Shown: positions 18,396-18,635, counted from the first letter of the stretch. The stretch is 64,000 bases of DNA from Escherichia coli O157:H7 (GCF_013167455.1 NZ_CP038328.1); one strand, 5' to 3'. Notes: generated by a model from the sequence alone, not told the origin. Program-made: numbers and translations.

Positions 18396-18635
18396 AAATA
18401 AAAAAATCCCGCAGAGTTAGCGGAGCTGCGGGAGAGAACGATGAAGATTAACGTTATGGAGTTATTTTTCAGGCATCAAAAAAGTAATGCAGCGTCATTA
18501 TTGCGGCTACAGGCAATTGCCGGAAATGTGAAGAGTTTCAGAAATTTTATTCCGTCATGACACAGGCACCCTCCGGGGTGCCTGTTGTTTTCTGGCATAA
18601 ACAGATTCAGACATCAGACAGGAGAGGGGGACAGA

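Follow-up and report, generated by a model that had tools for sequence, protein, structure and literature searches.

The closest described relatives of the locus examined here are Hfq-binding small RNAs (sRNAs) encoded by Escherichia coli prophages. EcOnc22, EcOnc23, and EcOnc24 are homologous Hfq-CRAC peaks on the plus strand of the Sakai genome, situated in Sp15, Sp14, and Sp11 (Tree et al. 2014; PMC4104026, Table S2). EcOnc22 measures approximately 85 nt by northern analysis and is destabilised in an hfq deletion strain (PMC4104026), and the intergenic entry ECs2942...ECs2945 is credited with approximately 21-33 thousand Hfq-bound reads on one strand and 200-400 on the other. Among papers on EcOnc22 we found only a review table, in which the target is entered as unknown, and no published function. 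In the EPEC strain E2348/69, prophage PP6 encodes PasB, an 83-nt RNA on the minus strand of NC_011601.1 (1466343..1466261; Pearl Mizrahi et al. 2021; PMC8550237, Table S6). PasB, which was located by RNA-seq and northern analysis, depends on Hfq, ends in a U tract of 7 nt, and pairs with 37 partners in RIL-seq; it is represented by hundreds to a thousand normalised reads, with the flanking tail genes near zero (PMC8550237); in the published EPEC data its level is higher in LB than in DMEM. It is embedded in an operon of phage structural genes, and has a 3′ terminator with the predicted seed just upstream (Zhu, Shabalina and Storz 2026, bioRxiv 10.64898/2026.05.13.724894).

The window (the whole 64,000-nucleotide stretch of E. 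coli O157:H7 DNA that was analysed) carries a lambdoid prophage in which 240 bp separate tail genes I and J. We regard this spacer as a composite of two ordinary elements, a minus-strand sRNA gene with its own promoter and terminator and a tail-strand hairpin before J, and give this reading a probability of roughly 0.8. The locus is an already known one, the gene of the EcOnc22/PasB prophage sRNA together with the usual hairpin before J. What we add is modest: a predicted CRP-dependent promoter, a three-state slot that can hold sodC, and the recurrence of a terminator-like hairpin before J.

The spacer and its minus-strand sRNA gene

The features that define the spacer and the predicted gene within it are as follows.

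17718..18395, plus strand: tail assembly gene I (from the ORF list and the VT1-Sakai annotation of identical sequence)
18636..22109, plus strand: J, the tail tip / host specificity gene (GTG start in frame with ORF 18585..22109; the VT1-Sakai annotation agrees)
18474 to 18400, minus strand: predicted 75-nt gene for an sRNA related to EcOnc22/PasB (by homology, with a predicted 5′ end)
18441..18452, minus strand: conserved single-stranded core GUUAAUCUUCAU, a putative seed (better conserved across 55 variants than the rest of the RNA body)
18400..18433, minus strand: Rho-independent sRNA terminator, stem 18433-18426 / 18414-18407 followed by U7 at 18406-18400 (from terminator scan, inverted repeat and fold)

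The 240-bp spacer, reported earlier from the sequence, is real and occupies 18396-18635, between the TGA stop codon of gene I at 18393-18395, which forms its left edge, and J, its right edge, whose GTG start at 18636 is preceded by GGAGAGGGGGA. It was thought unusual, a description that database comparison does not bear out. The sequence is 100% identical in VT1-Sakai (Sp15), CP-1639, and Stx2a_WGPS6; it matches 147 phage records and, of the 5426 complete E. coli genomes, 1840, at up to 11 copies per genome. Within the complete E. coli set, 868 genomes hold the full-length form and 874 the part that contains the second hairpin. In the comparison with related prophages, which had been proposed as a check, the spacer is common, and both of its stems are conserved in relatives despite variable loops and flanks. 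Spacers beside a nearly identical J fall into three length classes, A (237-253 bp, the type found in the window), B (341-346 bp), and C (851-854 bp), and the IMG/VR set compared contained no relative without a spacer. The J gene of the window is an intact single ORF of 1157 aa; in the records of VT1-Sakai and Sakai Sp15, J is annotated as interrupted by a mutation. Given this difference in J despite an identical spacer, the window derives from a related prophage or strain and not from Sp15 itself.

Over 420 nt, the spacer and its flanks are 100% identical to the I-J regions of Sakai Sp15, Sp14, and Sp11. The tail genes of all three prophages lie on the minus strand of the Sakai chromosome, so the EcOnc22, EcOnc23, and EcOnc24 peaks are antisense to the tail genes. 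Placing these peaks exactly requires a correction, because the published numbering is that of an older version of the genome. AgvB1 is found at 1941922-1941978 of NC_002695.2 (L008 923-979) and its published peak at 1941783-1941835, a shift of +136 to +143. Since the peaks are equally placed relative to J in Sp15, Sp14, and Sp11, the shift should be constant from 2.17 to 2.90 Mb, and our placement of EcOnc22 uses the offset measured at 1.94 Mb, assumed to be valid at 2.9 Mb. Corrected in this way, the EcOnc22 peak corresponds to approximately 18410-18477 of the window, on the minus strand, inside the predicted RNA and PasB homologue. The equation of EcOnc22 with the sRNA of the window is thus well supported, and depends on a coordinate correction of approximately +140 nt. 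Uncorrected coordinates would put EcOnc22 22-84 nt from the J start, antisense to the second hairpin, a position that we rejected because of the AgvB1 shift of about 140 nt. EcOnc coordinates transferred uncorrected to NC_002695.2 misplace the sRNAs. A search of the Tree et al. (2014) supplement for a probe matching the spacer did not find the EcOnc22 probe sequence.

The EPEC evidence bears on the same position. In E2348/69 the last base of tail assembly gene I is 1466255 and the first of gpJ is 1466496, so that PasB lies inside the I-J spacer, abutting the I stop codon, on the opposite strand. The northern probe used for PasB, AATCCCGCAGTGATCGCGGAGCT (PMC8550237), is the plus strand of the first hairpin of the spacer (hairpin 1). 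The window aligns along the whole E2348/69 I-J locus, with both hairpins conserved. Zhu et al. (2026) assign family membership by homology to the E2348/69 RNA over more than 75% of its length; the predicted sRNA covers 73 of the 83 nt and is identical at 59 of 73 positions (81%). Its location is also that of the family, in the I-J gap of a lambdoid prophage and antisense to both genes, and NC_049945, one of the three RefSeq representatives for Pas loci given by Zhu et al. (2026), has a spacer identical to that of the window. A discrete Hfq-binding, Hfq-dependent RNA of approximately 80 nt has been published for identical Sakai DNA, given the coordinate correction, and for an EPEC homologue, and is predicted in the strain of the window. 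The existence, strand, size, and Hfq dependence of the sRNA come from experiments by others on identical or homologous sequence; the identity of the locus, the anatomy of the terminator, and the patterns of conservation come from our own analysis.

Hairpin 1 exists as described, with perfect 8-bp arms (18407-18414 / 18426-18433) and an 11-nt loop. Its free energy is -14 kcal/mol (z = -3.3 against dinucleotide-preserving shuffles; z = -3.4 for the minus-strand fold). Because an A7 run (18400-18406) precedes it on the plus strand and no T-run follows it there, we assign it as a terminator to the minus strand, where the 8-bp stem and U7 give it the ending expected of the PasB/EcOnc22 family. A terminator scan of 1.4 kb returned three sites (1.1 expected), with the second hairpin (hairpin 2) found on the plus strand and hairpin 1 on the minus strand. 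The stem CCCGCAG/CUGCGGG(A) followed by U6-9 is common to 55 unique variants of the sRNA, the loops of which vary in sequence and length. Hairpin 1 with its A7 run serves the sRNA as Rho-independent terminator, and presumably as its Hfq-binding 3′ module. Among the options originally offered for the spacer, that of a small RNA was correct in kind, though the RNA is read antisense to I and J, and hairpin 1 terminates this RNA and does not belong to the transcript of I. An attenuator setting the J:I ratio cannot apply at hairpin 1, where the tail strand has no U-run after the stem.

The 55 unique sRNAs, of 74-86 nt, were drawn from 80 IMG/VR loci retrieved through the J N-terminus and a further 120 retrieved through a conserved DNA block. 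All contain the core (G)UUAAUCUUC(A/G)U, which occupies 18452-18441 in the window, and their A-rich 5′ part is variable. Rfam, searched at permissive E-values with 17500-19500 and two Sakai loci, had no match to the spacer, and family membership consequently rests on pairwise homology. An sRNA of the AgvB/AsxR anti-sRNA type was considered and rejected, since those RNAs sit at the PR′ moron site; PasA, PasC, and PasD were rejected as identities because they lie near lysis and esterase genes rather than tail genes.

Searching the whole window against Rfam gave only two OrzO-P matches and a TPP riboswitch. The OrzO-P antitoxin RNAs (RF02083), which belong to zorO-orzO type I toxin-antitoxin systems, are at 35721-35796 and 36332-36405 on the minus strand (99.9 and 88.8 bits), and mapping of coordinates to Sakai puts both copies outside the prophage. 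The TPP riboswitch (RF00059, 71.2 bits) is at 60946-61042 on the plus strand, in the chromosomal part of the window. In Sakai Sp15, outside the window, an STnc100 match (RF02076, 176.7 bits) lies just downstream of stx1B (L005 338-547).

On this reading the sRNA, of about 75-85 nt, Hfq-dependent and base-pairing, would be made in lysogens in which the tail genes are silent, and would act in trans on host and prophage mRNAs. For annotation, this means that the I-J gap of Stx and related lambdoid prophages should be treated neither as dead space nor as a terminator of gene I; it holds a backward-reading, Hfq-dependent regulatory RNA made in lysogens.

Candidate promoter and CRP-like site

The middle of the spacer would supply the promoter of the sRNA, and three elements are relevant.

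18481..18486, minus strand: candidate -10 box TACTTT, of the pattern TAnnnT, with a predicted start at G18474
18497..18502, minus strand: second -10-like box AATAAT, a possible alternative promoter that would give an RNA of about 91 nt
18524..18545, unstranded: CRP-like site AAATGTGA-AGAGTT-TCAGAAAT, its centre 60.5 nt upstream of the start predicted for the sRNA

A scan of 17800-19200 with the sigma-70 consensus found no promoter, and for this reason the proposal is built on comparative patterns. In 58 of the 63 unique variants, TAnnnT stands at one and the same distance from the CRP-like site, its middle three bases free to vary, conservation that looks like the signature of a -10 box. The start predicted from it falls, in EPEC, within 1 nt of the reported 5′ end of PasB. 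The second box is TATAAT in 29 of the 63 variants, AATAAT in 20, and TATCAT in 6, and it is missing from one divergent variant and from spacers of class C, which retain the downstream box. As the main -10 element this upstream TATAAT-like box is disfavoured: it would leave the CRP-like site at a non-canonical -44.5 and make the RNA 16 nt longer than the reported one, and it is lost in variants that retain the downstream box. We prefer the downstream box, and a second promoter may exist. The predicted length of 75 nt is shorter than the northern estimate of about 85 nt; the start is uncertain, and the second box would give about 91 nt.

The CRP-like site is the sole match to the CRP consensus at three or fewer mismatches in the 64-kb window, where 0.40 matches are expected. 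Compared with TGTGA-N6-TCACA, its left half is perfect and its right half (TCAGA) agrees at four of five positions. No variation is seen in the block among the class A and class B spacers retrieved through J, a retrieval independent of the motif, and neighbouring sequence varies by 20-30%. Its centre lies at -60.5 from the predicted start and at -59.5 to -60.5 from the reported EPEC 5′ end, the canonical class I position being -61.5. Taking the TAnnnT box together with an invariant CRP-like site at about -60.5, we infer that the sRNA is probably turned on by cAMP-CRP when glucose is lacking; the exact 5′ end in this prophage is likewise read from sequence. DMEM contains glucose. The higher level of PasB in LB than in DMEM would fit activation by CRP, as circumstantial evidence. 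Neither a promoter nor CRP is mentioned in the two Pas papers (Pearl Mizrahi et al. 2021; Zhu et al. 2026).

In a divergent relative (L140; three copies among the IMG/VR loci), the CRP-like 22-mer and a TAGATT box occur at the same spacing ahead of an RNA whose body differs and whose terminator stem is a different one (CUCCCG...CGGGAG followed by U6). The promoter module may therefore be common to more than one sRNA.

Two readings go beyond the literature that we found: that the invariant block is a working class I CRP site, and that siphophage tail modules in general have a hairpin before J and keep it by selection. We hold either one only tentatively, at somewhat less than even odds. Were the CRP site functional, an sRNA carried by prophages in one third of complete E. 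coli genomes would couple regulation of the host by the prophage to carbon supply. Were the pre-J hairpin general, the tail operon would be partitioned at the I/J boundary, and that boundary would have become a landing site for antisense cargo, either the sRNA or the sRNA with sodC. As roughly one in three complete E. coli genomes has the sRNA, its predicted CRP control and its conserved core offer handles for study.

The hairpin before J

The second hairpin noted in the spacer is also real. Its arms (18562-18571 / 18576-18585) form 10 perfect base pairs around a 4-nt loop and are followed by TGTTTTCT.

18562..18593, plus strand: hairpin 2, intrinsic-terminator-like, a 10-bp stem with a UCCG loop followed by UGUUUUCU, 43 nt upstream of the J start

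With its flanks it folds at -25.8 kcal/mol (z = -5.0 against dinucleotide-preserving shuffles). Seven of the 10 stem pairs are GC, and the U-run is kept in all variants, as expected of an intrinsic terminator. Stem pair 8 is C-G in 72 class A copies, U-A in 37, U.G in 7, and C.A in 2, and the other pairs are nearly invariant. This one compensatory pair is the evidence that selection holds the structure, as it appears to do.

Hairpin 2 has counterparts in other phages. The original prediction took lambda J to follow I within a few bases. This is wrong; the lambda gap (NC_001416 15445-15504) is 60 nt long and has a hairpin and U-run of its own, AACCGCC-UGCG-GGCGGUU and then UUGUCAUUU, directly before the J Shine-Dalgarno sequence. 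PhiR26_1, Serratia phage Opt-169, mEpX2 (HK97-like), and Cronobacter phage phiES15 have an equivalent arrangement built from unrelated sequence, and an equivalent pre-J hairpin is found also in SRT8, a virulent T1-like phage, and in Pseudomonas phage 5400. All seven sampled phages with an I-J gap, lambda included, thus have a GC-rich hairpin and U-run on the tail strand before J. In four more distant phages I and J abut or overlap. Homologues of J occur in 1639 phage records. The gaps sampled were these.

Pre-J gaps: L209 746-805 (lambda), L210 641-700, L211 656-700, L212 625-676, L213 618-667, L215 391-467, L218 415-460

We found no description of a lambda I-J terminator or of a recurring pre-J hairpin in the searchable literature. 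Judged by this sequence comparison, hairpin 2 is a local version of the recurring hairpin, and ordinary. The recurrence is a small general point about the layout of tail operons and about sites at which cargo is inserted.

The lambdoid late operon is transcribed by Q-modified polymerase, which passes intrinsic terminators. Since such a polymerase should ignore hairpin 2, the most economical and most likely role for it in a lambdoid prophage would be to stop RNA polymerase unmodified by the phage antiterminator Q before that polymerase enters J. The transcription stopped would comprise spurious transcripts of the lysogen, including those running antisense through the sRNA gene. In lytic growth, Q-modified polymerase would pass through. 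Another effect may be that the message of the upstream tail genes has its 3′ end trimmed or stabilised at hairpin 2. The role that we propose is, like the CRP control, derived from sequence.

That hairpin 2 is a genuine attenuator, which lowers transcription into J or leaves a stable upstream 3′ end and so sets the J:I ratio during lytic growth, is possible and rather unlikely. It has the canonical geometry of a plus-strand terminator, the compensatory pair, and a retained U-run, and its pre-J equivalents in lambda, PhiR26_1, Opt-169, mEpX2, phiES15, SRT8, and Pseudomonas phage 5400 point the same way. To our knowledge SRT8 has no antitermination of the lambda Q type, and if it has none, a terminator there would really attenuate. 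Against this, in the lambdoid late operon Q-modified polymerase reads through intrinsic terminators, and in four of the 11 J-bearing phages examined I and J abut or overlap and the hairpin is absent. Attenuation or 3′-end stabilisation at hairpin 2 is nevertheless the part of the attenuator idea that survives as a possibility. A stop for polymerase that escaped Q modification is the role we favour.

The I-J junction as a cargo slot, and comparison with known systems

In lambda and four further lambdoid phages, I is separated from J by no more than 45-60 nt. Relative to lambda, the window has approximately 150 bp of extra DNA, roughly 18396-18550, which comprises the sRNA gene and its promoter and lies between the I stop codon and the hairpin. 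Extra DNA between genes that are neighbours in related phages, here with a terminator and a putative promoter, is a moron in the sense of Juhala et al. (2000).

The three spacer classes differ on the side of J. Class B (L044, L021, L075, and about 60 other loci) keeps the sRNA and the CRP-like block, and its homology to class A ends just past that block. Hairpin 2 is replaced in it by AAAACCCCGGTATC-TGCT-GATACCGGGGTTTCTCTTT, which has T-runs on both strands and resembles a bidirectional terminator, and about 130 bp of unrelated sequence precede J. This class explains the majority of E. coli genomes in which just 65% of the window's spacer is matched. Class C (L018, L020, L022, L060, and L083, all from IMG/VR) keeps the sRNA and its -10 box and has, upstream of the sRNA on the minus strand, the periplasmic Cu,Zn superoxide dismutase gene sodC (PF00080, E = 4e-32) with its own terminator. 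The sRNA lies about 100 nt downstream of sodC, without the CRP-like block, and may be driven differently or processed from the sodC transcript. The constant element in all three classes is the sRNA beside the I stop codon, and the J-proximal DNA is exchangeable.

This constancy of place is one reason to ask whether the sRNA acts also, or mainly, in cis, by triggering cleavage of leaky late transcripts or interfering with convergent transcription so that J stays silent in lysogens. The sRNA matches the I-J junction in the late mRNA with perfect complementarity, its gene lies inside the late operon in convergent orientation, and its position beside the I stop codon is held in all three classes as the J-proximal side is exchanged. 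We think such a role improbable. RIL-seq identified 37 partners in trans; the I and J genes are not among the matches listed in the EPEC RIL-seq interaction table or the interacting-RNA feature table, and in the published tables as searched they were found in the differential-expression table, in Table S6, and in the annotation file only; and at least about 160 nt separate the complementary region from the ribosome-binding site of J downstream. Action in trans thus remains our preferred reading.

The spacer had also been suggested to be the scar of a lost moron. Part of this stands, in that the I-J junction is a cargo slot occupied by sodC in some relatives; the window itself, on the other hand, holds an intact moron-like sRNA gene of an expressed family. 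Taken literally, as a decaying, functionless remnant left by the loss of a larger moron such as sodC, the idea draws on the close relatives with antisense sodC in the same slot and an 851-854-bp spacer. It is very unlikely nonetheless: the terminator stem, the core, the -10 positions, the CRP-like site, and hairpin 2 are constrained amid neighbours that vary by 20-30%, class A contains no sodC-derived sequence, and the RNA is abundant and Hfq-bound in two pathotypes, published expression data that largely refute it already.

Two small ORFs lie in the spacer.

18441-18560, plus strand: ORF of 39 aa
18476-18598, minus strand: ORF of 40 aa

That one of them encodes a small protein, perhaps a toxin of type I for which the sRNA would be the antitoxin and hairpin 2 the terminator of the mini-gene, is barely credible. 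The plus-strand ORF is provided with a GGGAGA Shine-Dalgarno sequence, ends 1 nt before hairpin 2, and is overlapped at its start by the sRNA. Against this, 17 of the 39 unique relatives have ACG or ACA as its start codon, its length varies between 6 and 97 codons with frequent frame-breaking indels, and its peptide is not hydrophobic and has no Pfam match; the minus-strand ORF crosses the CRP-like block and hairpin 2. With start codon, frame, and length all unconserved, we rejected a type I toxin-antitoxin system.

A minus-strand sRNA gene next to an ordinary pre-J hairpin is thus the reading to set against known systems. Across the spacer and its flanks, the window shows no sequence difference from the EcOnc22, EcOnc23, and EcOnc24 regions of Sakai Sp15, Sp14, and Sp11. 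With EPEC PasB it shares the I-J slot, the strand opposite to the tail genes, the stem CCCGCAG/CUGCGGG with U7, and the core upstream of the terminator, as well as the CRP-like block and hairpin 2 in the flanks, at approximately 81% identity. The sRNA of the window differs from PasB in being 7-8 nt shorter in the variable A-rich 5′ part, in its terminator loop, and in its -35 region.

The lambda I-J hairpin resembles hairpin 2 in its GC-rich stem, tetraloop, and U-run, in its tail-strand orientation, and in its position just before the J Shine-Dalgarno sequence; the lambda gap differs in being only 60 nt long, in lacking an sRNA gene, and in having a sequence that cannot be convincingly aligned with that of the window. 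CyaR is a CRP-activated Hfq sRNA, of the type expected to report carbon status. The predicted RNA is like CyaR in being a short Hfq-dependent sRNA with an upstream CRP site, although its CRP dependence is only predicted and the two sequences are unrelated. The sodC moron, finally, offers a parallel in having its own promoter and terminator, in lying between late genes, and in being expressed in the lysogen, and in some close relatives sodC shares the exact slot and the strand of the sRNA. The difference is in the cargo, which in the window is a non-coding RNA of about 75 nt and in the sodC moron a protein gene.
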